From the NCBI GenBank assembly GCA_038134595.1, contig JAYPVM010000006.1:67440-131439 (forward strand): a DNA stretch of 64,000 bases, written 5' to 3'. Each line of letters starts with the position of its first letter. Positions within the stretch are counted from its first letter, which is position 1. Position numbers and translations under genes: made by a program. Positions 15,360 to 40,957 of this stretch are shown piece by piece. The DNA is from Pseudomonadota bacterium (GTDB taxonomy: Bacteria; Bdellovibrionota_C; UBA2361; OMII01). Below the pieces are notes generated by a model that saw only the letters and a program-made list of their open reading frames with translations, did not search any database and had not been told where the DNA came from.

Positions 15360-17171
15360 TTATCTATCATCTCCTAGTTTCAGAACCGCCAAGAATGCTT
15401 CCTGCGGAATCGACACCTTTCCTACTTGCTTCATCCGCTTTTTGCCCTCTTTTTGCTTTTCGAGCAGCTTTCGCTTTCGAGTTATGTCTCCACCATAGCA
15501 CTTCGCCGTCACATTCTTTCTAAGCGCCTTTACCGTACTACGCGCAATAACCTTTGTTCCTATTGATGCCTGAATAGCAATCTCAAACATCTGTCTATCG
15601 ATTATATCTCGTAGCTTTTCGGTTAGTTCCTTTCCGCGATAATACGCTTTATCACGATGCACTATGATACTTAAAGCATCGACAATCTCTCCATTTAACT
15701 TTATATCAAGTTTCACCAAATCTGCAGGCTGATAGCCTATGATTTCATAGTCAAATGAGGCGTATCCCTTAGTCATTGATTTCAAGCGGTCGTGAAAGTC
15801 TAAGACTATCTCATTTAGAGGAATCTCATAGGTGATAACAGCCCGTTCCATCCCGTGGAAAGCAAGATCCCTCTGCACTCCTCTCCGATCTTCACACAAT
15901 GACAAAACGTTACCCACAAACTCCTTTGGACAGTGAATTGTTGCCTGCACCACCGGCTCTTCAATTCGATCGATTTCTTGCGTTGGTGGCATCTTCGATG
16001 GATTATCAACATCCAAAACAACGCCATCTTCTTTATGAATCTTATACACCACTGAAGGGGCTGTAGTGATAAGATTAAGTTCAAATTCACGCTCTAATCG
16101 CTCTTGCACTATCTCCATATGCAAAAGGCCAAGATAGCCACAACGATATCCAAATCCCAATGCAACGGAGGTTTCCGGCTCAAATGTAAAGGCACTGTCA
16201 TTGAGGCTTAATTTTTCAAGCGCAACCTTAAGAGCGGCATAATCATCGGAATCTACCGGGAACAGCCCACCAAAAACCATGGGCTGCACCTCCTTAAATC
16301 CCGGCAAAGGCTCAACATCGCCATTCTTACTGTGAGTAACGGTATCTCCAATCTTGACGTCTCGAAGTGTCTTTACAGCTGCGGAGAAAAATCCAACCTC
16401 ACCACTTCGAAGCGTCTTGACCTCTGTGGCATGTGGTGTGAAAACTCCCAGCTTGTACACCTCATATTCTCGATCGGTAACAACAAAGCGTATATCATCC
16501 CCTGGCTCAATTGCCCCATCGATTACTCTAACCTGCACCACAACTCCAAGATACGGGTCAAACCACGAATCATATACCAGGGCTCGTAATGGCGCATCAG
16601 CAGAGCCTCTCGAGGGCGGTGGCACCCGCTTGACAATAGCTTCTAATACCTCTGGGACTCCTATGCCAGTTTTTGCACTGATCGTCAGTGCATCCGAAGT
16701 ATCTAGCCCAATAACAGCTTCAATCTCTTCCTTGATCCTCTCAGCATCGGCATTAGGGAGGTCGATCTTATTCAAAACCGGAATGATTTCTAAATCGTGC
16801 TCAAGGGCAAGGTATACGTTTGCCAACGTCTGTGCCTCTACACCTTGTGAAGCATCAACAACTAACAGCGCACCCTCACAGGCTGAGAGGCTTTTTGACA
16901 CTTCGTAGTTAAAATCGACGTGCCCCGGGGTATCGATAAGATTTAGCTGATAATTAACGCCGTCACTCCCCTTATAGCTTAGACGGACCGTTTGAGCCTT
17001 AATAGTAATGCCTCGTTCCCTTTCCAAGTCTAACTTGTCGAGGATTTGCGACTGCATCTCACGCTTCTGGAGCGCTCCAGTCACTTCCAGGATCCTATCA
17101 GCAAGCGTCGATTTTCCGTGGTCGATATGGGCTATAATACTGAAATTGCGAATTCTACTTCGTTCTGTCAC
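15360..17171 (-). CDS. lepA: Elongation factor 4 (LepA)
   Basis: 603 aa with the G1 motif [13 protein letters not shown], an EF-G-like domain layout and a LepA-specific C-terminus. Confidence 0.95.
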
Positions 17172-17189: not shown

Positions 17190-18140
17190 TTACGCAGTCT
17201 GTTTCAACGCTCGTAAGCGAGCATCAAAGTCGGCAATCGTACGTTTTAATCCCTCGTCCAGGAGCACACTGGGCTCCCATTTTAACTCCCGTTTCGCAAG
17301 TGAGATATCTGGCTTTCGTCGAGTCGGGTCATCGGTAGGGAGCGGGCGCAAAACGACCTTGGATGACGATCCGGTTAATTCAATTATCTTCTTAGCTAGA
17401 TCGATAATTGTCATCTCATTCGGATTACCCAGATTAACCGGGCCATAGAATCCTTCTCGATTCATCGCACCCATGATCCCCCGAACCAGATCATCGACAA
17501 AACAAAACGACCGAGTCTGCAAGCCTTCTCCGTATACCGTAATATCCTCACCTTTTAGTGCCTGTACGATGAAATTCGATACTACTCTCCCATCATCAAA
17601 CAACATCCGAGGGCCGTATGTGTTAAATATCCGTACGATCCTAGCGTCAACTGTACCCTGCTCTTTATAATTGAACGAGAGGGTCTCAGCGACTCGCTTG
17701 CCTTCATCATAACAGCTTCTTGGCCCGACAGGATTCACATTACCCCAGTACGTCTCGCACTGTGGATGCTCCAGAGGGTCTCCATACACCTCCGAAGTCG
17801 AAGCCAATAAGAAGCGTGACTTAGTACGCTTGGCCAAGCCCAGCATATTCAGAGTACCTGTAACGCTTGTTTTAATAGTCTTTATTGGATTGTACTGATA
17901 GTGAATCGGGGAAGCAGGACACGCCAAATGGTACACTTGATCACACTCAAGCCACAATGGTTGGGTTACGTCGTGACGTACAAAGTCAAAATTTGGATCA
18001 TCCAAAAACCCATAAATGTTGGCCTTGGTCCCGGTAAAAAGGTTATCTACGGCTATGACCTCATGCCCCTCCGAAAGCAGTTCACCACAGAGGTGTGAAC
18101 CAATAAAACCAGCACCACCAGTAACCACTATCCTTGCCAT
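17190..18140 (-). CDS. UDP-glucuronate decarboxylase (UDP-xylose synthase-type extended SDR; ArnA decarboxylase-domain-like)
   Basis: 316 aa with [11 protein letters not shown] Rossmann motif, YDEGKR catalytic Tyr motif and a VDNLFTG UXS-like signature. Immediately downstream of ugd. Confidence 0.8.
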
Positions 18141-18181
18141 GCGTCGTACCTCTTATCCCTTGTATTGCGTTTTGCTCTCTA

Positions 18182-19507
18182 TCAGGAGCCCCGTACCACG
18201 GGCCGTCCGATGCTGTAGTATGTAAAGCCTAATGACTGCATATCCTCAAGCTCATACAGATTCCTTCCGTCAAATATGACAGGAGACTGCAATGCAGTCT
18301 TGATACGATCGAAATTCGGCTGACGAAATGAATTCCATTCAGTGCATATAATCAAGGCATCGGCCCCGTTTAGGGCCTCGTAATTATCCTGACAGTAGGA
18401 AATTTGCGGATTAGCCCCGAAGCGCTCATTAAAGGTTCCATTAGCCTCTGGATCATGGGCACGAACAGTAGCGCCTAATCGAACCAAGTCCTCACATAAA
18501 ACTAGTGCCGGCGCATCACGAACATCATCGGTTTTAGGCTTAAATGCCAACCCCCATACGGCAACAGTCTTCCCGTTTAAATTATCAGCTCCAAAATGCT
18601 CCACCACCTTGGAGGTCATTACTTTCTTCTGTTGATGATTTGTCTGCTCCACGGCTTCTGAAATCCTCATCGGCACATCATGTTCCAATCCGGTTCGAAC
18701 AAGCGCCTGAACATCCTTTGGAAAGCACGAACCACCGTATCCCATCCCCGGAAAGATAAAACTCATTCCGATTCGCGAATCGGTTCCGATTCCTAATCGC
18801 ACCTTATCTATATCAGCACCCGCCTGCTCACACAGATTAGCAACTTCATTCATAAATGAAATCCGGAGAGCCAGCATTGCATTTGCAGCATACTTAGTCA
18901 TTTCTGCAGATTTGATATCCATGACAAGAATAGGATTATTATTCCTCACAAATGGCGCATACAATTCACGCATCACTTCAGCTACCTTATCATCGGCGGC
19001 CCCAATGACGACTCGATCTGGACGCAGAAAATCATCTATCGCCGCACCCTCCTTTAAAAACTCAGGATTGCTGACAACATGAACAGGATGTGATGAAACG
19101 CTTTCGATTGCAGCCCGCACCTTATCTGCGGTACCTACTGGCACTGTCGACTTATCCACAACTATCTTTGTGCCATTCATATGCTGACCGATACCCAGTG
19201 CAACATTGAGAACATGAGACAGGTCGGCTGAGCCATCCTCATCCTGTGGGGTACCGACTGCAATAAAGATAATCTGTGAGCTCTCGACGGCATCTTTTAG
19301 CGACGTCGAAAACTTCAGGCGCCCGGCCTTCGCATTGCCCTGAACAAGTTCCTCTAATCCTGGTTCGTATATTGGTATCTGCCCATTTTTAAGCGCAGTT
19401 ATTTTTTCTTGATTAACATCAACACACACAACGTCATTACCGGTTTCGGCAAAACATGCCCCGGCCACCAATCCAACATATCCAGTTCCTACAATCGCAA
19501 TATTCAT
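18182..19507 (-). CDS. ugd: UDP-glucose 6-dehydrogenase
   Basis: 441 aa with the NAD-binding N-terminus IAIVGTGYVGLV and the catalytic Cys region GYGGSCFPKD. Confidence 0.9.
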   Translation of the reverse strand: MNIAIVGTGYVGLVAGACFAETGNDVVCVDVNQEKITALKNGQIPIYEPGLEELVQGNAKAGRLKFSTSLKDAVESSQIIFIAVGTPQDEDGSADLSHVLNVALGIGQHMNGTKIVVDKSTVPVGTADKVRAAIESVSSHPVHVVSNPEFLKEGAAIDDFLRPDRVVIGAADDKVAEVMRELYAPFVRNNNPILVMDIKSAEMTKYAANAMLALRISFMNEVANLCEQAGADIDKVRLGIGTDSRIGMSFIFPGMGYGGSCFPKDVQALVRTGLEHDVPMRISEAVEQTNHQQKKVMTSKVVEHFGADNLNGKTVAVWGLAFKPKTDDVRDAPALVLCEDLVRLGATVRAHDPEANGTFNERFGANPQISYCQDNYEALNGADALIICTEWNSFRQPNFDRIKTALQSPVIFDGRNLYELEDMQSLGFTYYSIGRPVVRGS

Positions 19508-19775
19508 CTTACTTCCTCGTGATTATACTTTCGTGACTCATGGCTGCCAGCCTTGCTTTTGGAACCTATACTCTCGGCACATCGTGTGCGAAACAATCGA
19601 CACTACTCAAGTGTGGCAGAATATAGCCCAAGTCAAAGGGGAGATCAAAGAGGGATTGCAGTCCCAGAGAAGTCGCCCCTCCCCTTCATGCCTGGCAGTT
19701 TAAACGATAAAAACCTAGCATATATAAGCGATTTGTCTGCATGTTAGAGCATAGCATCAAGGTAGCACATAGAAA

Positions 19776-22100
19776 CTACCACCCAAGCACAGCAAGCGTC
19801 CTATCTCCAATGGCCTCCTGGTAAACACCCCCTTCGAGCCCACGCTGTTCATCTAATCGCTTAAAATCACCAGCATCCAATGAAAAGAGCGTAAGAGTTG
19901 GATTGTGAAAACCATAGGTACCAGCAGGCGCCTCAAACTGCCTAATAACAGGCACTTCGGAGAAGATCTCTCTAAACCGCTGTCGCAGTATCGCTGCACT
20001 TTCTGGCTGACTGAAATAACGGTCATAAAACAAGCTCGACAACACAAGGTATTGAGCTCCGGAACTTCTTAATCGACCGACGGACAGATCCTGTATGATC
20101 CTCGCCCTCGGAATGTGTTCGACATTAAAAAATTTACCGTGAAAGTTTGGACAATACGGCTTCCAGTCCATTAAGACTTTTGAATCGTGTGGCAAGTTAT
20201 GGATCATCCAAGTTGCTAATTGCTCTCGAGTATCATTTGTTACATCTCTTGCCAACAAAACGCTTCGGGCAAGTGGAAACGAACCAAGAACGAATATAAA
20301 AAGAACCGCACCATACCTTAGCAATACCGTTCTATCCCTTCTCAACTGCTCACAAACGACAGCTATACCGATCGCCATAAACGGCAAACAGGGCAGAATA
20401 TACCTCTCCGGCTGGGGAGCTGGTTTAGCCTTAACAAACTCTGCGGGAAGATAAAATAAAAGTGCCATGGAAACGACAATTAGGTCCTCTAGCTTCGACC
20501 TCCTGATCAGAAATCCCAAAGCAACACAACTGACAACCGTAATTGGCAGGGTCATTCCCGGTCGGATACTTCGCCACAAATGATAACACCAAAGCTGAGA
20601 CCACGCGGAAATAGTTACGGTATGACCGGTCTGCATGTGTCTTGATTCAGAATGAAAATCTTTCAAGAATTTAGCCGAATTCAGCACAGAGAACGGCGTA
20701 GTTGCTATAAAGCCCAACGGCGCTACACATACTGAGAAGATAGCAATAGCGAGCCACCGCTTGTCAGGTTTAATACTACGGGAGCTAATCCACGGCGCAG
20801 TAGCAGGTATACCCACCATTAGTAGTCCGGAATACTTAACTCCCGCTGATGCTCCCGCAAGAAGTCCTGCAACGACCAAAAGCCATCGTTTGTTTGTTTG
20901 TACAGCGACTAATGTTGTCCACAAACACATCAAGACGACAAATGTCAACAAAGCGTCTTCCTTCATATACCGACTACATGTGACATGTAGCGGAAACGTC
21001 GCGAGCAAGAGTGCTCCTATAGCTCCGACCATCCGAGAATATAACCGCGTCCCGATTAAATAGACTAAAATTACAGAGCCAATCCCAGCCGTTGCACTAA
21101 CGAGCCTCCCTGCCAAAAAGGCAGTTTCCCGAAAGCTACCTTCTACGCCCAACCAATGCAGAAGCACATTTACCGCATAGCTTGAATAAAGAAGTAGAGA
21201 GGGATGTAAAAAATACTGTGGATCAAGGGTATTTTGATCCACCATCCTCATAATGGCATTAACTTTTGGCACCTCATCTGGATGGAAATTTGCCGGCAAG
21301 CCGAATGTAATTCCATATAATCTGAGCGAGGCCGCCACTACCACCGCAAGTAGGAGCACACCCATAGAGACAATTCTTGAATCCTCATCTTCCTGCACCC
21401 TTCTCTGAAGGTATCCCCACATACCAACTAGCATCCCCAAGCTAAGAACCATCACAGGCGGAAATTTAGACGGGGCGACATCCGAGAAAAAAACGAGCCC
21501 GCCCGCCAATATCCCTATTGCGGTAAGGGCAACAAGGCTTGAGAGCCCTGATTTTTGCGCAACATACCGAGTGAAAAATCCAAGTCCAGCAAAAAACCCC
21601 GCAACCACTGCAATCAACCACCAACCAACAAGTGGAAGGCCTATCCACGAGTTAATAGAAACCGACGCTAGGTGTGTTCCCAATAATCTTGGCTTACTCT
21701 CTGTTACGGGCTGAAAGAATCGAAGAGACTTAATCTTTAGATGCAGAGGACTGCATCCAAATGGCAACGACAGCTTAATTGGTGCTGCCCCGCCGATTTC
21801 AAAGTTTTTCCAGGAGCCATCGCAAACAGAAATTGCAACCAGAGGGACCTCATTTGCTCCAGGCCGAATATGGCCGAAATGCAACGCGATACGATTCCCG
21901 ATCCCAGCAAAATTCGATACCGCAATACGAAGTTCCTCTCCTACCCATCCATCATGAGTAATGTCCCCCTTGCTTATTCCCTGCAAATCATGTCCAGAAA
22001 ACGAATGTTTCGAAAGTGTGCCAGTAGAGGCAATCGAAGCAAGCATGCTAACGACGAAAATAAGGGCGAGTCGACTCAAGCGACCCATTTTGACCTGCAT
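19776..22100 (-). CDS. GT-C superfamily glycosyltransferase (GT39/GT83, ArnT/PMT-like) with extra N- and C-terminal extracytoplasmic domains
   Basis: 774 aa polytopic protein. The first extracytoplasmic loop carries an acidic HPDE motif in a GT39/ArnT-like context (LYGITFGLPANFHPDEVP). More than 10 TM helices. A C-terminal domain of about 200 aa is soluble. Confidence 0.65.
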   Translation of the reverse strand: MQVKMGRLSRLALIFVVSMLASIASTGTLSKHSFSGHDLQGISKGDITHDGWVGEELRIAVSNFAGIGNRIALHFGHIRPGANEVPLVAISVCDGSWKNFEIGGAAPIKLSLPFGCSPLHLKIKSLRFFQPVTESKPRLLGTHLASVSINSWIGLPLVGWWLIAVVAGFFAGLGFFTRYVAQKSGLSSLVALTAIGILAGGLVFFSDVAPSKFPPVMVLSLGMLVGMWGYLQRRVQEDEDSRIVSMGVLLLAVVVAASLRLYGITFGLPANFHPDEVPKVNAIMRMVDQNTLDPQYFLHPSLLLYSSYAVNVLLHWLGVEGSFRETAFLAGRLVSATAGIGSVILVYLIGTRLYSRMVGAIGALLLATFPLHVTCSRYMKEDALLTFVVLMCLWTTLVAVQTNKRWLLVVAGLLAGASAGVKYSGLLMVGIPATAPWISSRSIKPDKRWLAIAIFSVCVAPLGFIATTPFSVLNSAKFLKDFHSESRHMQTGHTVTISAWSQLWCYHLWRSIRPGMTLPITVVSCVALGFLIRRSKLEDLIVVSMALLFYLPAEFVKAKPAPQPERYILPCLPFMAIGIAVVCEQLRRDRTVLLRYGAVLFIFVLGSFPLARSVLLARDVTNDTREQLATWMIHNLPHDSKVLMDWKPYCPNFHGKFFNVEHIPRARIIQDLSVGRLRSSGAQYLVLSSLFYDRYFSQPESAAILRQRFREIFSEVPVIRQFEAPAGTYGFHNPTLTLFSLDAGDFKRLDEQRGLEGGVYQEAIGDRTLAVLGW

Positions 22101-22126
22101 GAAAACCTCTCTCTCTCTTATTCTCT

Positions 22127-24136
22127 CTAGCTTGATACCTTGCGCGCTTCAAGCATCTTTGCGACAACTACTGGCTCGCTTCCGCTATTTTGTCGGTGCC
22201 TGTTCATGGCCACTCGAATCGGGTCCTGCGGCGGAGACCAGCCTCGGCTACGAAGATAGGATGTTAACTCCTTAACGTCGACAATAATAGAGGTCTTATC
22301 TACAAACACGACGAAAGGATACTGCTCCTTATCGACCCCTTTTCTTGGTAACGAGTAGAAAAGCAATTCCTCAGACGGACGCGACGTCAACTCCTTCACA
22401 ACTTTGTCTAATGGCGGAAAGTACGTTGCCTTACTGAGCTTCTCTGGGCGAAAATCCTCTCGTCGGTATACAAAGTGGGTAACCCCTTCGGGAGCAAGGA
22501 GCGTGACTAGCTCCTGCAATGAAGTCGCATAATGAGCTCGAAGCGAAATCTCGCTCCGACGCCTCATCTCCAGATTGTAGCGTGGATAGAACGGCTGTGA
22601 AGTCTCGGTAGTCACCAATGCTCTTCTTATCCCAAACAATTGCATTCCATCACAGTGAGTCGGGTGACAAGCTATCAAGGAATCAGACGGAGTATTGTCT
22701 CGAATCCACTCATACATCTTTCCGCGCTTGTAAAAGTGATAATTGAAATTAGCATCACCCTGCAAGCCATTACCTGAGCAGAGAAAAACCACAGCTCCCA
22801 CGACGGTAAAACTAATAAGAGCACCCCAACAGCTACGAAGCGTATCAGCTTTACCCCCTGTATTGCAGAGATTGGCTTCTCGCTTTTCCCGTTTCACGAA
22901 CAAGCGCCAAATACCGACACAGAAAGCGGTAATAAGAACAACGACCATCGGGATTTGCAAATGTCTATCTGGCACAAACAGCCAAAAAGCCACAAGGCGA
23001 GACAAGAAATACGTACATGACGCAGCCAAACCAAAAAAGAAAACTTCTGCTGGAAAGACCAATCGCCTTCTCAGTGCGCCAGCTCCGGCTATCAGCAGTA
23101 AACTACCGGGGACAGCCCACCACATAATCTCTCGCAAGAAAACCGGAGGTCGAAAAAGCCGTCCGATAAACGCCTGCAAGCCAAAAATTTTATACTCCGA
23201 TAAGATGGGCCTTAGCGGCAGAAACGGAAATCTACCAAAAGGCTTTTGGAATTCAGGCATACTAGCCGCTTCCGAAAAAGACACCATTTGACCAATATGC
23301 GCTGGTCGCTGAACAACTAGCAGAGCAACAAACACAAAAAGCGGGACAAGTGCTATTGATTGCACCAACACCTTACGGGCGGTTCTTCGCTCCTCCCCTC
23401 GACTACTAACGGCTCGCCATATCAAAAGAAAACCGTATGCCACACCAACAATCAAAGCCCCTGGCGGATTCAACATCGAACCAACAAGAATTGTTCCCAA
23501 ACAAGCCCAATGATTTCGCGTGGTCGCAAAGTAGAGAAACGCCGTAAAAATCGCCGGCGTCCAACCGCGCGGCAACCCCCCCGTCATCCGCTGCATAGTG
23601 TTGCGAGAGTGTAAAAGCCAAACAACTGATAGAAAAGCTGGCACCATGGCATTGTTAGACAGCCGCCGCACCGCCAAAAACAGAAATGTTACTGCAAGAC
23701 CCACTTGCAACAACATAATCCAATGCCCCGTCATGATCGGGTTTTTGGTAGCCAATGTTACGACAAAACTAAGCCAATAGTGTACGGGCGGTAAACATCC
23801 CCGCATAACTTCAGCAATCAAGTCATTACTAAATCTCCCGGGATACAGAGCATCATACAAAGGAAAAGTCTGCTGTGTCGCATCGTCGGTAGTCCATAGG
23901 GGATGAAACCACCGTCCCTGTAAACTAGTTAAAAATGCCGCAGCGTAGTACACAAGCAAGGCGCCGGACAAAAGAATCGGGGTGGTAACATACCTACGCA
24001 CCCAACCCCACAAATACATTATGCCATTAACTCGGTCGTGATTGCCGGCCGCTCCCTGCGCCGTCTTAACTGCATGGGCAGGCGATTGAGAAGAAAGAGC
24101 ATCTTCGGAGACGTTAACTGGACTACTCTGCATCAA
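22127..24136 (-). CDS. Large polytopic membrane protein with a C-terminal soluble domain, function unknown (possible second GT-C-type transferase)
   Basis: 669 aa with more than 10 predicted TM helices, followed by a hydrophilic C-terminal domain of about 230 aa. It is 26 nt upstream of, and co-directional with, the GT39-like gene. Confidence 0.5.
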   Translation of the reverse strand: MMQSSPVNVSEDALSSQSPAHAVKTAQGAAGNHDRVNGIMYLWGWVRRYVTTPILLSGALLVYYAAAFLTSLQGRWFHPLWTTDDATQQTFPLYDALYPGRFSNDLIAEVMRGCLPPVHYWLSFVVTLATKNPIMTGHWIMLLQVGLAVTFLFLAVRRLSNNAMVPAFLSVVWLLHSRNTMQRMTGGLPRGWTPAIFTAFLYFATTRNHWACLGTILVGSMLNPPGALIVGVAYGFLLIWRAVSSRGEERRTARKVLVQSIALVPLFVFVALLVVQRPAHIGQMVSFSEAASMPEFQKPFGRFPFLPLRPILSEYKIFGLQAFIGRLFRPPVFLREIMWWAVPGSLLLIAGAGALRRRLVFPAEVFFFGLAASCTYFLSRLVAFWLFVPDRHLQIPMVVVLITAFCVGIWRLFVKREKREANLCNTGGKADTLRSCWGALISFTVVGAVVFLCSGNGLQGDANFNYHFYKRGKMYEWIRDNTPSDSLIACHPTHCDGMQLFGIRRALVTTETSQPFYPRYNLEMRRRSEISLRAHYATSLQELVTLLAPEGVTHFVYRREDFRPEKLSKATYFPPLDKVVKELTSRPSEELLFYSLPRKGVDKEQYPFVVFVDKTSIIVDVKELTSYLRSRGWSPPQDPIRVAMNRHRQNSGSEPVVVAKMLEARKVSS

Positions 24137-24658
24137 ACTGAACCTTTCGGACTATAACTTCTTGCAAGAATCGACGACTAGAACAGACAATCAAACACTA
24201 TCTCCGACTAAGGAAGTTTCGTGCCTACCTGTTTTGGGCTAGGTTATCCGTCCATAGGAGCTTAGTCAAACCCCATAAAGTACCGAAACCGCACAAAATA
24301 CAGGCATTTAAAAAAGACTTTTGCGCCACAGGCAAACTACAGCCGAGTAGCATTTCAATCTCGCTGTTAAAAAACAACGAGCATAGCCAACAATACACCG
24401 ATCAGGCGCTGCCTCTCGTGCCCCCCATTCTCGTACTTGCACCGAATATGGTTTCATTTATCTCTCGATTTCACGCAATGATTCGTTAAATGACCAGCTC
24501 TCGCCCCCTCATAAGCCGGGCCGCTAGCCTATTGAACTTTACGACAAGAGAACTTAGCTTACAAAAAAGATTATTTACTCTCTAGCGTAGTTTGCCAAAA
24601 AAAATTATTACGGTAAGCGTACACGATTAAACGTTATATTCTGATTGAGTATATTAAA

Positions 24659-25222
24659 ATGACAAAAAGAACCTGGCTCCACGCCACACTGATAACAACG
24701 ACACTAACCATCCTGACAGGCTGTGGTGGCGGCGGGAGCAATAGCAACGATAACTTTGTAGGAGCTGCGTCAGTAGTGGTTCGCACAGCACCTTCTCGAA
24801 TAGACTCAGGAGACAGAACTCTGACCAGAATTGAAGTTTCATCTGTCCACGAAAACGGAATCGCACTAAAGGTTCGCTTTCCGAGTGGTCTTCGATACGT
24901 TTCTGGCTCTGCCCTGCTAGAGGTTGACAATAGAGAGATTGACATTTCGCCCACTGTAAATTCAATCGCACGCGCTGAAGACCAAACGTATTTAATCTTT
25001 TACCTCGAACAAAGCTTATTTAAGCGGGCCAACCAACCATACAACGGCGAATCGGGGACGGTTACTCTTCAACTTGAAGGTCGTGAGGAAGTTGAACGGG
25101 GCTCCATAGATATTGACGCAGATGTCGACGATCCGGCCGAGGATAATTCCACAGAGTTTGACATAGAGAATCCTGAATTCATATCAGAGTCATCAGCGTC
25201 AATTGAGGTCATCGTTGAGTAA
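24659..25222 (+). CDS. Hypothetical lipoprotein with an acidic C-terminus
   Basis: Signal peptide with lipobox (LTILTGC), a Gly/Ser/Asn linker, then a beta-rich domain and a D/E-rich tail. An AT-rich divergent promoter region lies upstream. Confidence 0.55.
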   Translation: MTKRTWLHATLITTTLTILTGCGGGGSNSNDNFVGAASVVVRTAPSRIDSGDRTLTRIEVSSVHENGIALKVRFPSGLRYVSGSALLEVDNREIDISPTVNSIARAEDQTYLIFYLEQSLFKRANQPYNGESGTVTLQLEGREEVERGSIDIDADVDDPAEDNSTEFDIENPEFISESSASIEVIVE

Positions 25223-25444: not shown

Positions 25445-26764
25445 TTGGGCAATCACCGACAAATCCTTCTCGAACACATTAATAATCCAGATCAACACAC
25501 CCTTGCCGGGTATGAATCTAGAGACGGCTATAAAGCCGTCCTGAAGACTCTGGCTATGGAGTCCTCTGCAATTATCGATGAAGTCAAAAACTCTGGTCTC
25601 CGAGGTCGAGGAGGCGCAGGATTTCCTGCCGGTCAAAAGTGGAGCTTTGTCCCTCGCGATACTGGAAAACCCACGTACATCATTTGCAATGCGGACGAAA
25701 GCGAGCCTGGAACGTTTAAAGATCGTCTCTTACTTGAGAAAAACCCCCACGCAATAATCGAAGGAATGATGATTGCCGCCCTAGCTGTTGGGAGCAAATG
25801 GATGTGTGTATACATCCGTGGAGAATATGCATTTCCGTATACACAGCTCAAAAAGGCGGTCGACGAGTGCTATCAAAAGGGATATCTAGGGAAGAACATC
25901 TTTGGCTCTCAGCGCGAGCTTGAACTAGTGGTTCATCGCGGAGCTGGGGCCTACATATGTGGGGAAGAGACAGGGCTTATTGAGTCACTCGAGGGGAAGA
26001 AAGGACAGCCGAGATTAAAGCCCCCCTACTTTCCCGCCGTCTTGGGGCTATATCATGCGCCAACAGTGCTCAATAACGTTGAGACTTATGCCGCAGTTCC
26101 ATGGATAATTCGGAACGGCGCGGAGGAATATGCAAAAATAGGTACAGAGAAATCAAAAGGGACAAAGCTTGTTTCTGCCTCGGGACACATCAACAACCCA
26201 GGTGTGTACGAAATTGAGATGGGGTATCCATTCAAACGATTCCTTGAGGAGGAGTGTGGCGGCATGCTAGACGGTACCACACTAAAGGCCGTCATTCCGG
26301 GTGGGTCATCAGTACCGATTGTAAGAGCCGATGAGATTGAAGATGTAACCATGGATTATGAGGGATGGAACAAGCTTGGAACATTTTTGGGCTCAGGGGG
26401 AGTTATTGTTATCAACGATTCAGTTGATATGGTTGACGCCATCCGCAACCTCACTCACTTTTATGCCCATGAATCATGTGGGCAATGCACCCCGTGTCGC
26501 GAGGGAGGGCATTGGTTGGCGAAAACCTTCGACAGAATCCTTGATCAACGAGGAAAACCTAAAGACATAGAGTTCATTCAAACAGTAGTTAACCAAATTG
26601 CGGGACACACAATTTGCTTTTTGGGCGACTCCCTAGCAATGCCGATAAAGAGTTTTATGGCGAAGTTTCCGGAGGAATTCGCAGCTCTCACAGAACACAA
26701 GGAAAGCTCACCAACAAAGGACATACAGAGCAACCTGCATGCATCGTACAATCAAGGGGCATAA
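25445..26764 (+). CDS. nuoF: NADH:quinone oxidoreductase flavoprotein subunit NuoF homolog (51-kDa subunit)
   Basis: 439 aa with the FMN/NADH site (GRGGAGFPAGQKW, GAGAYICGEETGLIESLEG) and 4Fe-4S ligands (ESCGQCTPCREG). The start is TTG at 25445. No nuoE or nuoG is adjacent. Confidence 0.85.
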   Translation: MGNHRQILLEHINNPDQHTLAGYESRDGYKAVLKTLAMESSAIIDEVKNSGLRGRGGAGFPAGQKWSFVPRDTGKPTYIICNADESEPGTFKDRLLLEKNPHAIIEGMMIAALAVGSKWMCVYIRGEYAFPYTQLKKAVDECYQKGYLGKNIFGSQRELELVVHRGAGAYICGEETGLIESLEGKKGQPRLKPPYFPAVLGLYHAPTVLNNVETYAAVPWIIRNGAEEYAKIGTEKSKGTKLVSASGHINNPGVYEIEMGYPFKRFLEEECGGMLDGTTLKAVIPGGSSVPIVRADEIEDVTMDYEGWNKLGTFLGSGGVIVINDSVDMVDAIRNLTHFYAHESCGQCTPCREGGHWLAKTFDRILDQRGKPKDIEFIQTVVNQIAGHTICFLGDSLAMPIKSFMAKFPEEFAALTEHKESSPTKDIQSNLHASYNQGA

Positions 26765-26861
26765 GCATACAATGGCAGTCGCAGACTGTCTTGCAAGAAA
26801 AATCCGCTCGGCAGAGCCTCTCGCTCGAGGCTCAAGTAAGACCTGCACTGCTGTATTGGAC

Positions 26862-27863
26862 ATGACATCGAAAGAAACGCGCGCCCTTAGTGTAAAAACC
26901 TTTCGATATTTCAATCGGAACAGCCCCACCTCTCATCAGGGGGCCTTCTCAGAGCTACTATCCACACCATCTTCCTCAACAGAAACATCTCCCCGTACCA
27001 CGGAGAGCTCGGGTGGCTATTACCGCTCAAAAGCCAAGCCGAACAATTGTGCAAGTCGAACCATACAGATAGCCATACTAGTACTACTAACTATGTCTAT
27101 TTTCCCACATCAAGCTGTTTGCACTCCTTCTCCAGAATCTCAGAAGTGGCAAACCTTACGACCGGGATTAGAATCAATTACCACATCAGTCAGTGGTGAA
27201 TTCCTCTTTTCCTCTTCAATCCTAGCTGTCCGGGCTTCACCAATTACATTTCAACCAAAAGTATTTCGCGCAGTAGAATTTGGGGCTCCAACGGCCTCAG
27301 CCAAGCGAGTTTGCCAGGCAAGTGGAGCCAGTGCTTGCATCAACGCAAACTTCTTCGACGAGCAACACCGCCCGCTTGGAACGGTGATCAGTCGAGGAAT
27401 CATCCACAAAAATATCCACAGAGGAGGAGGAACCCTCACGGGCATCTTTGTAGCTACAAAAAACAGCTTATCCATAAAACATCGAAAAAGCTTCATTACG
27501 GAGAACGTTCTCGAAGCCTTTCAAGCTGGTCCACGTCTCATTGCTCATGGACATCCAGTTAGTGGTATCAAGGCATCGTCAGCACAAGGAGCGCTTTCCA
27601 TTCTCTGCATTGATTCTGAAAAACGAATAATTTTGGCAAAAATTGCCCTTTCAATCTTCGCTCGTTATCCATCAAAAATCCAAAGCACATTACTGCAAAA
27701 GCCCTTTAACTGTATTGATGCGCTCAATCTCGATGGAGGAAGCTCGTCACAATTATTTGCGTGGGGAGAGCAAACTCCGGCAAAGCTCGACTCCTCGAAG
27801 GTTATCGACTCACCTGGTTTGGATATGGTTCCGGTGGTGTTTGCTCTTGTAGCGCGACCTTGA
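26862..27863 (+). CDS. Phosphodiester glycosidase family protein (DUF2233/NAGPA-like)
   Basis: C-terminal LNLDGGSSS motif and surrounding region typical of the phosphodiester glycosidase family. A hydrophobic segment (IAILVLLTMSIF) precedes the domain. The start is uncertain: the ORF opens at 26739 overlapping nuoF, and ATG candidates lie at 26862 and 27093. Confidence 0.55.
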   Translation: MTSKETRALSVKTFRYFNRNSPTSHQGAFSELLSTPSSSTETSPRTTESSGGYYRSKAKPNNCASRTIQIAILVLLTMSIFPHQAVCTPSPESQKWQTLRPGLESITTSVSGEFLFSSSILAVRASPITFQPKVFRAVEFGAPTASAKRVCQASGASACINANFFDEQHRPLGTVISRGIIHKNIHRGGGTLTGIFVATKNSLSIKHRKSFITENVLEAFQAGPRLIAHGHPVSGIKASSAQGALSILCIDSEKRIILAKIALSIFARYPSKIQSTLLQKPFNCIDALNLDGGSSSQLFAWGEQTPAKLDSSKVIDSPGLDMVPVVFALVARP

Positions 27864-33739: not shown

Positions 33740-33931
33740 ACTCTGGTAGCGACTAGACGCATAGGTTCTACGCGTCCACGCCGACAGTAACAACCGAAAA
33801 TCACAATGCTTTCAGTTATTTACCAAAACTCCCAGTAAACAACAAGGGCATGAAAGTTACGCCTTGACAATAACTTGCTCTTTGTATAGTTGCATCCTAA
33901 ACTGCGTCTTACGATTAATGTAGGATTGTCA

Positions 33932-35962
33932 ATGGTCTTTAACAGCTCGATTTCAGGACAAAGCTCCCACCGAGATGGTGGAAGGAGCAGCGATCGGCAA
34001 CAATCAAACGAGCGATCAATAAGCGACTTGCAGCTTAGTCGCCTCGCGTTCTTTACACCCGCTTCTGTAGTCGAACGTCAGCTAAAAATAGATTTTACAA
34101 CCACACTAGACGGCGACATAGCCCTTGATCGTCCAATTAGACTTTTTGCAAAAAATGCAACGGGCGTAACCGTGGCCCAGTACACTGTAGAGAACCTCCA
34201 GTTGCTCGACGAGAGTGTCAAAAAAACGCTATCGGATAAAATCAAAAGCTGCCGTAGATTAGAACTATCGGTCGAGACTCTTGCTCAAACCCTTCTAGGC
34301 CTTACGGAACACGACAATCGAATACAATGGAGCACAGAATCGCTCTATCCTGGAGCGAGGAAGCCTCTGCGGGAACTCCGTCCGTGCACTCCCTCTCTTG
34401 CCGAGTTTTTGCAAAATCCGACATGCCTCGAAAAAGCCTTCTATTCCATTCGTAAGACTGGGCATACAGAAGAGAAGCTTACAGCAGTAATGGATACAGA
34501 TGCTCAGACAATCACCTTTACTCTTTGCTCAGAAAACCTACCACACTGGAGCCCCTCTGAGCACAAAAATCAACGCGTCGTAGTTTCTTGTTCATCACTC
34601 GACGACAGATCTTCCGATACGAATCCGCAAGACGTTCTGGCTCCAATTGTATGGCAAGCCATGGAGGCGTTTTGGAATACCGGAGCAACAGGTCTCACTA
34701 GATATCTGTTTAGAGCCTCTAAAGACAACAAGGACACAAGCCCCCCCGGAATACAAGTGCGAGTACAGGACTTTTCTTTTTACGGAAAAAGCAGTTCAGG
34801 AGCCTATGTATCATTTGAGGGGTCATCTCAAGTCGCGCAAGTTACCCTAACACAAGAACCCCTGCTATCCCCTTTAAGTAAAAAACCAGCTTCTGGAAGT
34901 GGGCAATGGATTTTTGTAAATGATTCAAAAACGTCTCGTACTACCGCTAGCTCCGCTGAGAACACAATGTTAAGAGAAATCGGCACTGCGGTGACCAAGC
35001 TCATGCACTCACGAGGCGAGAGCTCCCTAGAAGAGGTATTTGCGACACTAACACTGGCGGCTCGCTCTGAGGTGTTCTTTCGACCAGACACTTCTGCCGT
35101 GGTAGAACCAGAGGTTTCCACGTATCTCGCAAAACTTGTAAATACGCGGGTATTACACTCCTGGGAAAGACCCTCTATTCCAGAGTTAATAAATTTTCTA
35201 GAGGGAACAAAAAGCCTCCAAATAATACTTACAGAAGACCCTGCTACACCCTCTCGCTTTCCATTTAACGCTCTCACTATTGATAAGTTCGTCGACGGCC
35301 GCACGCGACTCTCTCTCGTTAATAATCTCGGAGCACACTGCGAAGCTCAATTCTGCCGCCTCTCTTCAGATGATATGCGCCTCATCCTGAAAACCTTCGA
35401 TCAACAATTGGAAGAAGGAGTCCCCTCGTTGAGCAGAAGACGTTTGCAGTTGGTCTTGGAAACTTTGAAAAGCAGAAACACAGAAAACTGGGTGTTATTC
35501 TCCGGAACTTCATCAATCCCCGCAGCCGATGATACAGACGCGCACCAACTACTCGACGCCGCACTGCCAGTGATCAATCGTTACCTAGCTATGCGAACGA
35601 TTCGAGAAAAAACGAGCTATTCAGAGAAAAGCAATACAGCAGTTGTTTATCCCCAAAATGGCGTCATAGAGGTAAGCCTAGGAGAGGATTACCATCCCTA
35701 TCAATTAAGAGTGAGATTACAGCATAACTCGCTAACGCAAATAGAGATAATTCCCGACGAGTCCTCCTCCGGCCGGTTTAAAAAGCCGCGAAGGTATGCT
35801 TCTCGAAGTGGGATTACGTTAAACACTCCCGAATCAGATAGGTTTTTCGAATCTACACTCAAACATTTCTTTTCACTTGTCAGCAACACGACCGGGAGCC
35901 TTGAATTCGGCAATTCTGAGCTTCGTAGATTTCTAGACAGGCATTTTCAGGGCCCGCAGTGA
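33932..35962 (+). CDS. Large orphan hypothetical protein (677 aa)
   Basis: Long uninterrupted ORF with AGGA SD 6 nt before the ATG at 33932. The ORF track starts at TTG 33890. I recognise no motif. It is mostly hydrophilic and lies 190 nt downstream of the NYN gene. Confidence 0.6.
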   Translation: MVFNSSISGQSSHRDGGRSSDRQQSNERSISDLQLSRLAFFTPASVVERQLKIDFTTTLDGDIALDRPIRLFAKNATGVTVAQYTVENLQLLDESVKKTLSDKIKSCRRLELSVETLAQTLLGLTEHDNRIQWSTESLYPGARKPLRELRPCTPSLAEFLQNPTCLEKAFYSIRKTGHTEEKLTAVMDTDAQTITFTLCSENLPHWSPSEHKNQRVVVSCSSLDDRSSDTNPQDVLAPIVWQAMEAFWNTGATGLTRYLFRASKDNKDTSPPGIQVRVQDFSFYGKSSSGAYVSFEGSSQVAQVTLTQEPLLSPLSKKPASGSGQWIFVNDSKTSRTTASSAENTMLREIGTAVTKLMHSRGESSLEEVFATLTLAARSEVFFRPDTSAVVEPEVSTYLAKLVNTRVLHSWERPSIPELINFLEGTKSLQIILTEDPATPSRFPFNALTIDKFVDGRTRLSLVNNLGAHCEAQFCRLSSDDMRLILKTFDQQLEEGVPSLSRRRLQLVLETLKSRNTENWVLFSGTSSIPAADDTDAHQLLDAALPVINRYLAMRTIREKTSYSEKSNTAVVYPQNGVIEVSLGEDYHPYQLRVRLQHNSLTQIEIIPDESSSGRFKKPRRYASRSGITLNTPESDRFFESTLKHFFSLVSNTTGSLEFGNSELRRFLDRHFQGPQ

Positions 35963-37794: not shown

Positions 37795-38748
37795 TTAAGA
37801 GTGTGTGTTTGTGTCATACGCAACTGCAAGTAAGACATCCTGCACGTCCATCGGCCAGTGAAGAAGCTGATACGACGATTGCTCAACGATGTTCCTTGCA
37901 CTATCTTCCCAACGCTTTCGTTCTTCATCTCTTTGTGTGTTTTCTCCTGAGTGTTGCAAAACAATTAACTGCAGGGCGTCCAATTCTTTAAGGTATGTCG
38001 CTCCTTTCTTGCTTAAGCGTCTAGCAAGCTTCAGAGCCTTTTCTCCACTCTCGAAATCACCCTTTGCAATTGCTGTTAAACTCAAAACAAACTGGACCAT
38101 ACCACTATCTCTTACTGAGCGTTTCGCGGCAGCCTGTTGCAACAAAAAGTTATGTACTTGCTCAATCTGATTTAATGCGAGCAGCAAAATTCCATGATAA
38201 GCCACTTGCTCAACATCTTCTGACTGATGAAGCGCCTCGTATGAATAACACAACGCCTCTTGCTCCTCTCCGCTTACGAAAGCCAGATTGGCAATAGATC
38301 GCGCCAGTAGTGTTGCTTGCTCTCGATTATCAACCTCGTCAAATCGTCGATATGCTCCCTTCAACAAAGCTCGTGCCTGCACAAAATTACCCTCTTGTCT
38401 CTCGATATCTGCGAGGACAATCATGATATCCGGTCGTGGGCCTGACGACTTTCTTACACTCTCAATAACCTGCCTTGCTTCCAACAACCGACCCTGCTGG
38501 CTTAGGACCACAGCAAGGTTAAATTGCACGGCAGAGTTTGTTGAATCCAGCCAAGCAGCTTTCCGCAGTTGCCCCTCAGCATCCAAGAGTCGTCCCCGAC
38601 CAGCCGAAGCAACTGAATCAACAAGAAGGCCTGAAAGAATCAATTCTTCCGTCACAATCGACTTTGAGACACGATAGTCTCGTGAATGTGCACAGCCAAA
38701 ACAAATCGCAGTCATTACTGCTATTGCAAAATATCTAAACCGCGTCAT
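37795..38748 (-). CDS. TPR-repeat lipoprotein
   Basis: Lipobox (AICFGCAHS) followed by multiple TPR-like repeats. It is 12 nt downstream of, and co-directional with, the HAD::UbiA gene. Confidence 0.7.
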   Translation of the reverse strand: MTRFRYFAIAVMTAICFGCAHSRDYRVSKSIVTEELILSGLLVDSVASAGRGRLLDAEGQLRKAAWLDSTNSAVQFNLAVVLSQQGRLLEARQVIESVRKSSGPRPDIMIVLADIERQEGNFVQARALLKGAYRRFDEVDNREQATLLARSIANLAFVSGEEQEALCYSYEALHQSEDVEQVAYHGILLLALNQIEQVHNFLLQQAAAKRSVRDSGMVQFVLSLTAIAKGDFESGEKALKLARRLSKKGATYLKELDALQLIVLQHSGENTQRDEERKRWEDSARNIVEQSSYQLLHWPMDVQDVLLAVAYDTNTHS

Positions 38749-38760
38749 TTCAAATCACTT

Positions 38761-40233
38761 TTATAACCCTAAGCGCGCTGCGGTAAAGATTAGAAGCCCA
38801 AGAAGCCCCACGACATAAGTACCTACGTCTCGCAACGCAAATACAAGCGGATCATCATGCACCAGGCCCCGGCGCGCTAACAACCAAACACGACTAATCC
38901 AATACAACATGAGAGGACATGCCAACCAAATCATCTTCGGACTTTGATACAACGCCACTACCTCATTGCTACTGACATACAAAACTAGAACCAACGCTGC
39001 TATGTAACCACTCGCCGAACCGAATGAAGATACTTGTTCCATATCTCCTACCCAATAGCCCCTGCCCCAGGTCCTTTTTTCATTGCGCTGCTGAAGAGTC
39101 AGAAGTTCAGAAAAACGCTTAACGCAGGCAAGACTTAAGAAAAGAAACATCGACACACCGAGGAGCCATTGTGACAATGGTATTTCTGTAGCCACTCCGC
39201 CTCCGACGATTCGAATAGTATAAAGCATTGCCAATAAGATAATATCAACCAGAACTATAGCCTTTAAACGAAAAGAGTATGCAGTTGTAATCAGCAGATA
39301 GACCAACAATAATCCAACAAAGTGAGAGTGAATCTGCCAAGCAATACCGAACGCTGATACAAATAAAAGCGGAGCTAAACAAATTGCATATACTAACGGG
39401 AATCTACCAGCCGCACATGGGCGTTTCTTCTTTCTCGGATGCTGTCTATCTGACGCAAGATCAAGCAAATCGTTTACGATGTACACTCCCGATGCGCATA
39501 ACGAGAAAGCGACCGCGGCAAGCACGCTTCGTCCCACAACCATCGGTTCTAACCAACGATGTGCTAAAAACATCGGCGCAAATATCAAAAAGTTCTTCAA
39601 CCATTGATGGACTCTGAGGACTCGAAGGATAACGCTCCACGATGAGCGTACCACCTCAATCATTCGTGCACCTGGAAAAGCCTTTGAAATAGTCTCTGCA
39701 TATCCTATTGACGAGACCACCGCTGTTACCTCACAAGCCTCTCGCCACACTGCTATATCTGCCTCTGAATCACCAACATACTCCCAATCGTTTTGCCCAA
39801 GATGCTCCTTTATAGCCTCTACTTTCTTACTCCCTTTGCAGTTACGCGACACTGAAGAGCCAATCGAATGGGTCACAAAATTAAAACGGTCGGCAACAAG
39901 AGCAACTAATCGCTCATCAGATGCAGATGCAAGAATAATCCTCCGGCCCGATGCTGCTTGCGTTTCCAAGTATGAGACGACTCCCTCATGAACTGGCATC
40001 AAATCAACTCGCAATCCCTCCGCCCTGCCAGCCAATTCAGATTTTAGTGTAGCGCGTCCTCGAAATAGCCACCAAGGCAGTAGGAACAAAATCAGTGGAT
40101 TTCTCTTTAAAGCCAGTAAAAGGCTCTCATACAAGAGATCTGTTGCCAAAATTGTTCCATCAACATCAGCGACAACAACCGCAGGTCTACCACTCATCTT
40201 TTCCTGAACCATAGTCCTCTCTGAAAACGCCAT
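38761..40233 (-). CDS. HAD-phosphatase::UbiA-family fusion; C-terminal domain resembles decaprenyl-phosphate 5-phosphoribosyltransferase (Rv3806c-like DPPR synthase)
   Basis: N-terminal HAD motif I (VVVADVDGTILATD) in a domain of about 200 aa. The C-terminal 8-TM UbiA domain has the Asp-rich motif NDLLDLASDRQHPRKKKRP, which resembles the NDxxDxxxDRxHPxKxxRP signature of DPPR synthases. Start candidates are 40233, 40212 and 40197. The ORF extends to 40398. Confidence 0.75.
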   Translation of the reverse strand: MAFSERTMVQEKMSGRPAVVVADVDGTILATDLLYESLLLALKRNPLILFLLPWWLFRGRATLKSELAGRAEGLRVDLMPVHEGVVSYLETQAASGRRIILASASDERLVALVADRFNFVTHSIGSSVSRNCKGSKKVEAIKEHLGQNDWEYVGDSEADIAVWREACEVTAVVSSIGYAETISKAFPGARMIEVVRSSWSVILRVLRVHQWLKNFLIFAPMFLAHRWLEPMVVGRSVLAAVAFSLCASGVYIVNDLLDLASDRQHPRKKKRPCAAGRFPLVYAICLAPLLFVSAFGIAWQIHSHFVGLLLVYLLITTAYSFRLKAIVLVDIILLAMLYTIRIVGGGVATEIPLSQWLLGVSMFLFLSLACVKRFSELLTLQQRNEKRTWGRGYWVGDMEQVSSFGSASGYIAALVLVLYVSSNEVVALYQSPKMIWLACPLMLYWISRVWLLARRGLVHDDPLVFALRDVGTYVVGLLGLLIFTAARLGL

Positions 40234-40957
40234 TTCACGACTTTTTTCTGGTCGTGTGTATCGCACACAAATCAACGTCATCAAACGCAAGGCTTGAGTC
40301 GCGCAGTAGCCCTTCAAATCCAATACGCCTAAACACACACCGCAATCATATCTGTGGGGCACACCTACAATACTATCGAAGTAAGAGGATGAACACACCT
40401 CTTAATACGAAGAGCGGTAGAAACATCGGTCTGGCTAGCTCACAATCCACCGTAAATATTTAGAAACCCACTTAAGCAGCACCAAAAACCAATGAGATAC
40501 TATCATGTTACAGACCATTTTCACTAGCAGTCACACTAGAGAACGACTCAAAACATCGTCGCAAGCTAAAACAGTACACCAAAAGCATCTGCACAGTCTT
40601 CCCCAAGTCACGCCAAAATGAGTCGCAAGATCGAAGAAATACAACAGCGGTTACGCTAATTTTAACATCGCTCTGGGTCATATTTTGGCTAGTAGTAAGT
40701 GCTCCGATACGTTAAAATCAGGCGACAGGTTTCAACACTGTCGACAAGGCATGCCTTTGGATAGTAGAGCTAAAACTCATTTGAGATAATCAAGAGAGAG
40801 TTCTTACTCACTGTCAACGCTGGCTCAATTTTAGGCCGTAAGTTTTTGCCTCGGATCGCGCCATTAGATGGCAGAGTCCTCAAAAACAGGCTCGGTCCTT
40901 GAGGACAGGATCGTGATATGGCAGGTACAGGCGAGACTACCCGCATATTGAATTATC

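Follow-up and report, generated by a model that had tools for sequence, protein, structure and literature searches.

Lipid-linked sugars are the substrates with which glycosyltransferases (GTs) of the GT-C fold construct and modify the bacterial envelope, and new families are still being defined among them (GT136, in 2024). We report here on two adjacent genes predicted to encode such enzymes, which lie on the minus strand of a 64,000-nucleotide stretch of DNA (hereafter the window; assembly GCA_038134595.1, contig JAYPVM010000006.1, positions 67,440 to 131,439) from a Pseudomonadota bacterium placed in Bdellovibrionota_C. They encode GTC774, a protein of 774 amino acids (aa), and a neighbouring membrane protein, MP669 (listed as 669 aa, likely 668 aa). 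The nearest genome records of this uncultured freshwater lineage are metagenome-assembled genomes from lakes, labelled Bdellovibrionota, Bdellovibrionales or 'delta proteobacterium'.

Among the described systems, the PMT enzymes (family GT39; yeast Pmt1-Pmt2 and Pmt4, actinobacterial Pmt) act as dimers of two GT-C subunits and carry a MIR beta-trefoil domain between transmembrane (TM) helices TM7 and TM8; their acidic motif begins helix HH1 in Pmt4 (PMC12586580). ArnT/PmrK and FlmK (GT83) take an undecaprenyl-phosphate monosaccharide as donor on the periplasmic face, and in Francisella the lipid A mannose is added from undecaprenyl-P-mannose by the ArnT homolog FlmK (PMC2233673). STT3, PglB and AglB (GT66), the oligosaccharyltransferase (OST) proteins, combine a 13-TM-type core with a following extracytoplasmic alpha/beta domain. 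The C-mannosylation literature that we found, which bears on DPY19 (GT98; CeDPY19, PDB 7zlg), describes eukaryotic enzymes and acceptors. The Gtr systems comprise a GtrA flippase, a GtrB enzyme of family GT2 and a GtrC-type GT-C enzyme. The three-component pentofuranose systems of Kelly et al. comprise a PRP-UbiA synthase, a DprE1/E2 or ORF13 epimerase, a flippase and a GT136 enzyme, the GT-C (GT136) and the flippase being encoded with the synthase (PMC11127046); the comparison also includes the arabinosyltransferases Emb/Aft of mycobacteria and TfpW of Pseudomonas.

We regard it as an even prospect that MP669 and GTC774 form a conserved two-gene module of periplasm-facing GT-C glycosyltransferases, which would be co-transcribed and would use polyprenyl-monophosphate sugars on an acceptor in the envelope. 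The established part of this proposal consists of the predicted fold of both proteins, their conserved motifs and their conserved adjacency. With candidate catalytic residues, a PMT-like partner and a lipoprotein neighbour, the module would be compact and testable, in a phylum whose envelope chemistry is almost unknown.

The open reading frame (ORF) list of the window has four minus-strand ORFs, at 22127-24136 (MP669), 19776-22100 (GTC774), 18182-19507 (ugd) and 17190-18140 (uxs). Since each has hundreds of full-length homologs, all four are real genes, as the first-pass annotation of this DNA had held.

The GTC774 Protein

Judged from its sequence profile and modelled structure, GTC774 (19776-22100, minus strand) is a predicted GT-C glycosyltransferase of the PMT/ArnT clan. 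Pfam PMT_2 matches its residues 329-461 (E 2e-15; 57.7 bits against a cut-off of 26.1), and precomputed PMT matches (PF02366) exist for most of its homologs, some of which are named 'glycosyltransferase family 39 protein' by NCBI. The family profile reaches Chaetomium thermophilum Pmt4 and yeast Pmt1 (E 7e-6), the latter being the best sequence match among solved structures; PDB sequences searched with the single GTC774 or MP669 sequence gave no match, and Pmt1 and DPY19 came within reach with the family profiles only. Among 52 homologs (40-90% identity) there is no variation in H273-P-D-E276-V-P-K, R332 or S376-R-Y-x-K-E-D382. The codons of the acidic HPDE motif (H273-P-D275-E276), at the N-terminus of the first loop helix, occupy 21273-21284 (minus strand). 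As counted along the profile alignment, R332 aligns with R138 of Pmt1, an essential residue of that enzyme.

The AlphaFold2 model of GTC774 (predicted local distance difference test, pLDDT, 85.6) begins with a signal-anchor helix (7-29), followed by a periplasmic beta-sandwich (33-151), three extra TM helices (160-231), the GT-C core and a C-terminal alpha/beta domain (620-760), and thus contains the soluble domains that had been noted at both ends of the protein. A helix at 276-288 starts at E276, in the same way as the PMT acidic motif begins HH1 in Pmt4 (PMC12586580). When the model was compared with the PDB using Foldseek, all matches at E<=1e-3 were GT-C enzymes, among them STT3/AglB (1e-10), ALG12, ArnT, PglB, Pmt4, Emb and AftD. 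The beta-sandwich resembles a carbohydrate-binding module (CBM), with weak matches to carbohydrate-active enzymes. The PMT_2 match, the invariant HPDE and these fold matches uphold the earlier description of GTC774 as a GT-C enzyme with a PMT/ArnT-type acidic loop.

The topology of both GTC774 and MP669 rests on positive-inside analysis plus homology. Counted over the family alignment, the N-terminus of GTC774 and its loops 232-241 and 588-591 are rich in K and R, which places them in the cytoplasm, and the HPDE loop (262-322) and both soluble domains are predicted to be periplasmic; the first-pass annotation had made the assignment hinge on the side of the membrane that this loop faces and on a GT-C fold being predicted, and the predictions bear it out on both counts. 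An invariant cysteine pair in the N-terminal domain (C93/C116) fits an oxidising compartment.

Similarly to the PMTs, GTC774 possesses an acidic D-E pair starting the first loop helix, an arginine at the position of Pmt1 R138 and an S-R-Y...D motif, and, as expected of GT39, this acidic motif is in loop 1 of a PMT-type transmembrane domain. It is nevertheless not a canonical PMT, because it lacks the MIR domain (no Pfam match, and the corresponding loop 468-505 counts only 38 residues in the model). It also differs from the PMTs by the added signal-anchor, beta-sandwich, three TM helices and OST/DPY19-like C-terminal domain, and by having a partner from another GT-C family instead of a PMT paralog. 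With ArnT and FlmK it shares the clan, the fold and a D-E-type loop motif, and we propose the same type of donor on the same face of the membrane for it. Unlike them, however, GTC774 is ~220 aa longer, with two extra soluble domains; it matches none of the NCBIfam ArnT models at E<=0.01; it has no arnBCADEF or flmF genes nearby; and the adjacent decarboxylase gene is of the UXS type. No GTC774 homolog was found in the plasmid collection.

The MP669 Protein

The ORF of MP669 is listed from a TTG at 24136. The ATG at 24133 is the likelier start, because a 91%-identical homolog (P0121) starts likewise, and it gives a protein of 668 aa (22127-24133, minus strand). The first-pass annotation had recognised no motif in this protein and left its function unassigned; fold, profile and conserved motifs now place it among the GT-C glycosyltransferases, and we propose that it is a second GT-C enzyme, of an uncharacterised family with an STT3/DPY19-like build. 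Its AlphaFold2 model (pLDDT 88.4) shows ~12 TM helices followed by a periplasmic C-terminal alpha/beta domain at ~454-650, in agreement with the large soluble domain noted earlier. In the Foldseek comparison with the PDB, the best matches were STT3 (E 5e-8) and CeDPY19 (E 1e-7, ranked third), then PglB, AglB, AftA and ArnT, the top 25 being all of this kind. In addition, the family profile matches the luminal C-terminal domain of CeDPY19 (E 1e-4). Among 47 homologs, Pfam Dpy19 is matched weakly by 18 (best E 2e-7), DUF6798 by 23 and PTPS_related by seven, and these three families have been united with PMT and STT3 in one clan by HHpred analysis (PMC7801869). The sole Pfam match of the window protein itself is a sub-threshold one to DUF6798.

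Three motifs are invariant in the 47 close homologs: W80-T-T-D-D-x-Q-Q, G186-L-P-R-G-W and R390-H391. The first lies in the first periplasmic loop and includes D83-D84 (codons at 23882-23887, minus strand), the candidate for the acidic residue of catalysis. In 47 distant members of the family (~22% identity) only three columns are invariant, one of them D84, and these members keep D84, G-G-x-x-R189, R301, R390 and R526; this conservation suggests a catalytic site. Similarly to GTC774, the family alignment of MP669 supports a periplasmic active face: the N-terminus and the loop before the last TM helix are K/R-rich, the first periplasmic loop is low in K+R and high in D+E, and the acidic loop and the C-terminal domain are thus predicted to lie outside. 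MP669 represents a large family barely covered by Pfam. An exhaustive profile search counted 1947 clusters at 50% identity with E<=1e-3, of which 257 with E<=1e-30, and the distant members are almost without Pfam annotation.

By analogy with the catalytic loop 1 carboxylate and the two phosphate-binding Arg of DPY19 (E71, R211 and R471; PMC10154233), D83/D84, R189 and R390 are candidate counterparts in MP669, proposed as candidates and not as established residue equivalences, no residue-level alignment to the membrane part of CeDPY19 having been obtained. A broader MP669 profile, built with the distant members, does not reach DPY19, and we do not claim GT98 membership for that reason; the window protein also has no Pfam Dpy19 match, and the lipoprotein encoded next to it has no Trp. 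As for GT66, its members are the top fold matches of both proteins, which share with them a 13-TM-type core followed by an extracytoplasmic alpha/beta domain. Membership is nevertheless not supported for MP669 and GTC774: the WWDYG motif is absent from both sequences (GTC774 has L-M-D-W-K-P-Y in its place, and MP669 has G/C-H-P-T-H-x-D-G), neither has a Pfam STT3 match, and there are no genes for the assembly of lipid-linked oligosaccharides near the pair. The C-terminal domains of MP669 and GTC774 align with each other, with the common motifs W-x-x-N-(T/L)-P ... P-(F/Y)-(Y/C)-P ... G-(A/I)-D-Y-(L/F)-V.

Conservation of the Gene Pair and of Its Lipoprotein Neighbour

We compared 19 related loci, 12 from genomes and seven from homolog-encoding contigs (loci are designated by L numbers). 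In 17 of them, the MP669 and GTC774 genes lie side by side on the same strand. The spacing is 26 nucleotides (nt) in the window and in L031, a relative with 90% identity, whereas L014, L016 (assembly GCA_003696425.1) and L034 have overlaps of 4-14 nt between stop and start codons. Since ugd and uxs are not kept directly beside the pair in relatives other than L031, the conserved unit is the GT-C pair, not the four-gene set.

Two of the loci extend the pair. In the more distant L014 (10001-17637), the MP669 homolog and the GTC774 ortholog are accompanied by a third PMT_2 protein (621 aa) and, on the opposite strand, by a DUF8201 protein (590 aa) with a weak match to the GTC774 profile, a gene set that suggests a multi-GT-C assembly line. 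In L034 (8208-16406), a gene for a class A penicillin-binding protein (PBP1A) starts 14 nt after the pair and is followed by an HtrA-type protease gene, an arrangement which hints at a tie to cell-wall assembly. Two MP669-family genes occur in assembly GCA_041739995.1, one paired with a GTC774 ortholog (L035) and one alone (L015), the latter 4 kb downstream of a YfhO-family GT-C gene.

Divergently from the pair, the window encodes a predicted lipoprotein of 187 aa, hyp187 (24659-25222, plus strand), a candidate acceptor or partner of the two enzymes. It comprises a lipobox (LTGC), a poly-Gly linker, a beta-rich domain and an acidic C-terminal tail ending DADVDDP...EF..NPEF, and contains an invariant P-T-x-N motif; it has no Pfam or NCBIfam match, and no homology to the N-terminal beta-sandwich of GTC774 was found when looked for. 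Of the 18 loci with that side visible, 15, including the distant L013, L016 and L034, encode a homolog (165-195 aa) upstream of MP669 and divergent from it, so the lipoprotein gene probably belongs to the conserved functional unit together with the GT-C pair. It keeps this divergent place beside MP669 even where the other neighbours differ.

The 525-nt intergenic region between the two divergent genes (24134-24658) probably carries the promoters of both, as judged from its sequence. Minus-strand promoter-like sites occur at 24598-24570 and 24665-24638, and such sites are no commoner there than in shuffled sequence.

The ugd and uxs Genes

The first-pass annotation had read MP669, GTC774, ugd and uxs as one operon, and this grouping does not hold. 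The gap between GTC774 and ugd (19508-19775) measures 268 nt, against 26 nt between MP669 and GTC774, and contains a sigma-70-like site (CTGGCA-17-TATAAT at 19550-19522, minus strand), so that a transcription-unit boundary is likely there. In L001, L002, L005 and L008, an opposite-strand argJ gene stands between GTC774 and ugd (at 12336-13571 in L001); only a gap of ~270 nt is found at that place in the window and in L031, in whose sub-lineage argJ was lost or moved. Moreover, L003, L011 and L012 lack ugd up to 10 kb from the pair; neither ugd nor uxs is called in the up to 9.4 kb downstream of the pair in L014, L034 and L035; and L016 ends just after the pair. Both genes directly follow the pair only in the window and in L031. 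The common strand is little evidence of an operon, because the minus-strand run continues beyond uxs through lepA (15360-17171), a metallophosphoesterase gene, gnd and tsaE to an aspartokinase gene. As lepA comes after ugd/uxs in all the loci with these genes that extend far enough (L001, L002, L005 and L031), ugd/uxs are a neighbouring unit that travels with lepA, outside the GT-C module.

The identity of ugd (18182-19507, minus strand; UDP-glucose 6-dehydrogenase, 441 aa) was correctly recognised at first pass: all three UDPG_MGDP_dh domains are present, the NCBIfam nucleotide-sugar dehydrogenase model scores 458 bits against a cut-off of 190, and the best named match is TuaD. The product of uxs (17190-18140, minus strand; 316 aa) had been described as a decarboxylase of UXS or ArnA type. 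It is a UDP-glucuronate decarboxylase of the UXS1 type (UDP-xylose synthase), its residues 3-308 matching the human UXS1 structures 4gll/2b69 with E 2e-121 and 408 bits; the ArnA alternative falls away, as ArnA is matched with only ~1e-24 and the next non-UXS structure scores 128 bits. Because the UXS1 match far exceeds the ArnA match, Uxs makes UDP-xylose and not a precursor of 4-amino-4-deoxy-L-arabinose (Ara4N). No ArnB, ArnC, ArnD or ArnE/F gene occurs in the window or beside any ortholog examined; the classical Ara4N modification set is incomplete, as had been stated, and the classical Ara4N reading is out.

The Sugar Donor

Clues to the donor come from distant relatives of MP669. On the Chondrinema litorale plasmid NZ_CP111067.1 (L039, 8602-11520), a 544-aa member of the family (profile E 2e-76, full length) is directly preceded by a GtrA-family gene and a GT2 gene, inside a sulfated-exopolysaccharide cluster; this protein is annotated 'hypothetical protein' and could be re-annotated as a GtrC-type GT-C glycosyltransferase. 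L040 has two MP669-family genes in tandem and then, overlapping by 4 nt, the gene of a GT2 (320 aa) with a pair of TM helices at the C-terminus, which is the GtrB/ArnC/Dpm1 build. The best NCBIfam matches of the Chondrinema and L040 GT2s are polyprenyl-phosphate sugar synthases (PpgS, AglJ, ArnC), below the cut-offs. By analogy, these two independent contexts, in which MP669 relatives occupy the GtrC position, point to donors made from nucleotide sugars. The donor route is argued indirectly, as the GT2-linked members are only ~22% identical. In contrast to the Gtr systems, the pair is not accompanied by GtrA or GtrB in the window or in closer relatives, and has a second GT-C gene and a lipoprotein gene instead.

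The Decaprenylphosphoryl-Arabinose (DPA)-Like Cluster

A DPA-like cluster, recognised with Pfam, NCBIfam and the ORF list, lies at 37795-43041, 15 kb from the pair with housekeeping genes between. On the minus strand, it contains the gene of a HAD-UbiA polyprenyl-phosphoribose synthase (38761-40398; PRK08238, E 2e-172) and, directly after it, a TPR lipoprotein gene (37795-38748); on the plus strand, it contains the genes of a DprE1-like oxidase (40958-42307; E 8e-107) and of a DprE2-like SDR reductase (42250-43041; E 2e-52). The scores of the latter two are below the NCBIfam equivalog cut-offs (358 versus 500 and 178 versus 250, respectively). The window thus holds the donor half of a pentofuranose system, with a HAD-fused UbiA synthase and a DprE1/DprE2-type epimerase. 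No GT-C, MATE, SMR or GtrA gene adjoins the cluster, as judged from the ORF list and a hydropathy scan of the unannotated window ORFs, so the GT-C enzyme that consumes the DPA-like donor must be encoded elsewhere. Neither for ugd/uxs nor for the DPA-like genes does nearness to the pair amount to a demonstrated partnership.

The TPR lipoprotein gene also directly follows the synthase gene in L017, L036 and L037, where GT-C and flippase genes are likewise lacking next to the cluster; L036 and L037, both outgroups, have two or three GT2 genes ahead of the synthase gene.

Proposed Mechanism and Alternative Explanations

We propose that MP669 and GTC774 would be co-transcribed and would cooperate, either in sequence or as a complex similar to Pmt1-Pmt2 or EmbA-EmbB. 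Each would use, at the periplasmic face, a sugar carried by a polyprenyl monophosphate, with the loop Asp/Glu presumably serving as base and Arg/Lys residues binding the phosphate. A GtrB/ArnC-type GT2, with its gene outside the window, would most likely produce the donor from a nucleotide sugar. Ugd and Uxs would make UDP-glucuronate (UDP-GlcA) and UDP-xylose, apart from the GT-C module.

The acceptor would be an envelope molecule, with hyp187 as the leading single candidate and a glycan or lipid A nearly as likely. A protein acceptor is favoured by the nearest solved relatives (PMT, DPY19 and OST), which modify proteins, and by the conserved lipoprotein neighbour; a glycan or lipid acceptor is hinted at by the mannose-substituted lipid A reported for Bdellovibrio (cited in PMC2233673). 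Both C-mannosylation of hyp187 (at WxxW/C sequons) and its PglB-type N-glycosylation are excluded, because its mature part is devoid of Trp in each of 14 homologs and because an N-x-S/T sequon is not conserved in it. A PglB-type sequon in the hyp187 tail, E-D-N-S-T, is not conserved and was rejected. Only hyp187 was examined as an acceptor.

The lack of Trp and of a conserved sequon in hyp187 is among the observations that weigh against the proposed module. To the same side belong the MP669 homologs that stand without GTC774 in L013 and L015, from which it follows that the partnership is not obligatory; the weak hhalign score between the MP669 and GTC774 families (E 0.077); and the search for a GT2 synthase or flippase gene, which found none either in the window or, in any relative with annotation, at up to 10 kb from the pair. 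The conserved position of hyp187 could reflect a shared promoter region only, and an acceptor in the form of a glycan or the cell wall is hinted at by the CBM-like nature of the beta-sandwich, by L014 with its three to four consecutive GT-C genes and by the PBP1A gene that follows the pair in L034.

The first-pass annotation had cast the pair as consumers of a lipid-linked pentose donor. In this reading, one or both GT-C proteins would be pentofuranosyl transferases (D-arabinofuranosyl, D-Araf, or ribofuranosyl, Ribf) using the polyprenyl-phospho-pentose of the cluster 15 kb away, as a dispersed three-component system, and we hold it to be unlikely. The main point in its favour is that the DPA-like cluster, here and in L017, L036 and L037, has no GT-C or flippase of its own, together with a donor pathway that looks complete and with GTC774 and MP669 being the only GT-Cs of the 64-kb window. 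Furthermore, Emb, AftA and AftD are among the fold matches of the pair; Emb, AftD and GT136 also carry CBM-like beta domains (PMC11127046), as does GTC774; and the synthase and the pair share a contig in at least nine cases, two of them <38 kb. All these shared contigs, however, are from the window's own lineage (GT-C identity >=53%), in which the whole backbone is syntenic, and the contigs of 60-375 kb with more distant pairs are absent among the best 120 HAD-UbiA matches. In none of 16 synthase loci from several lineages does a homolog of MP669 or GTC774 occur within 10 kb. Of the expectation that orthologs of the pair would be found with DPA genes and not with arn genes, only the second half was borne out. 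Other lineages differ: their synthase gene either precedes that of another GT-C, a short PMT_2-like protein of 428 aa (L022) or 433 aa (L027), or has near it the genes of an SMR/EamA-like transporter and of an unannotated multi-TM protein (L020). The described systems, too, have their GT-C and flippase encoded with the synthase. Finally, the distant MP669 relatives accompany GtrA/GtrB-type GT2 genes and not a synthase dependent on phosphoribosyl pyrophosphate.

It is somewhat less probable still that the pair decorates lipid A or the lipopolysaccharide core in the manner of ArnT, FlmK and RgtD, with neutral or acidic sugars, for instance mannose at positions 1 and 4', the two enzymes serving two positions. 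This would agree with the place of GTC774 in the ArnT/PMT clan, with ArnT being among the fold matches of both proteins, with the name 'Ara4N transferase-like' given by JGI to several homologs, with the presence in L035, 8-10 kb upstream of the pair, of genes for heptosyltransferase and Kdo kinase, and with the phosphate-free, mannose-bearing lipid A reported for Bdellovibrio (PMC2233673). The host, however, belongs to an uncultured lineage and is not Bdellovibrio itself; the conserved surroundings of the pair include no lpx, arn or phosphatase genes; and the known lipid A transferases, of ~550 aa, have neither the N-terminal beta-sandwich nor the OST/DPY19-like C-terminal domain, which adds to the lack of an ArnT model match. 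We consider it improbable to a further degree that only GTC774 is catalytic, MP669 being a non-catalytic partner of GT-C fold (a scaffold, an acceptor-binding subunit or a carrier-lipid handler). The window MP669 is indeed above threshold for no Pfam glycosyltransferase model, and its link to DPY19 is restricted to the C-terminal domain and lost with the broader profile; against this stands the conservation of the loop Asp and several Arg down to ~22% identity over ~1900 clusters, a pattern expected of a catalytic site, and the occurrence of homologs alone (L013, L015) or beside GT2/GtrA genes without a PMT_2 partner, which argues for autonomous activity. Most doubtful of all is the suggestion that hyp187, MP669 and GTC774 constitute an undescribed bacterial protein-glycosylation system in which the two GT-Cs would cooperate to modify hyp187, possibly with undecaprenyl-phospho-arabinofuranose supplied by HAD-UbiA/DprE1/DprE2. 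If true, this would amount to a pathway for arabinosylated lipoprotein in a lineage of Gram-negative predators, with MP669 as the founder of a new CAZy family of GT-C enzymes.

Other Features of the Window

Rfam and tRNA scans of the window found nothing. On the plus strand, the interval 25445-27863 contains a gene of a NuoF-like protein (FMN and 4Fe-4S domains), which stands alone, with no other nuo genes nearby, and overlaps by 26 nt the gene of a membrane-anchored protein with a NAGPA (phosphodiester glycosidase) domain; this pairing is kept in 11 related loci. A soluble protein of 690 aa (33890-35962, plus strand), which has no Pfam or NCBIfam match, is encoded between an NYN-domain gene and dnaB, and the same position is kept in L032.

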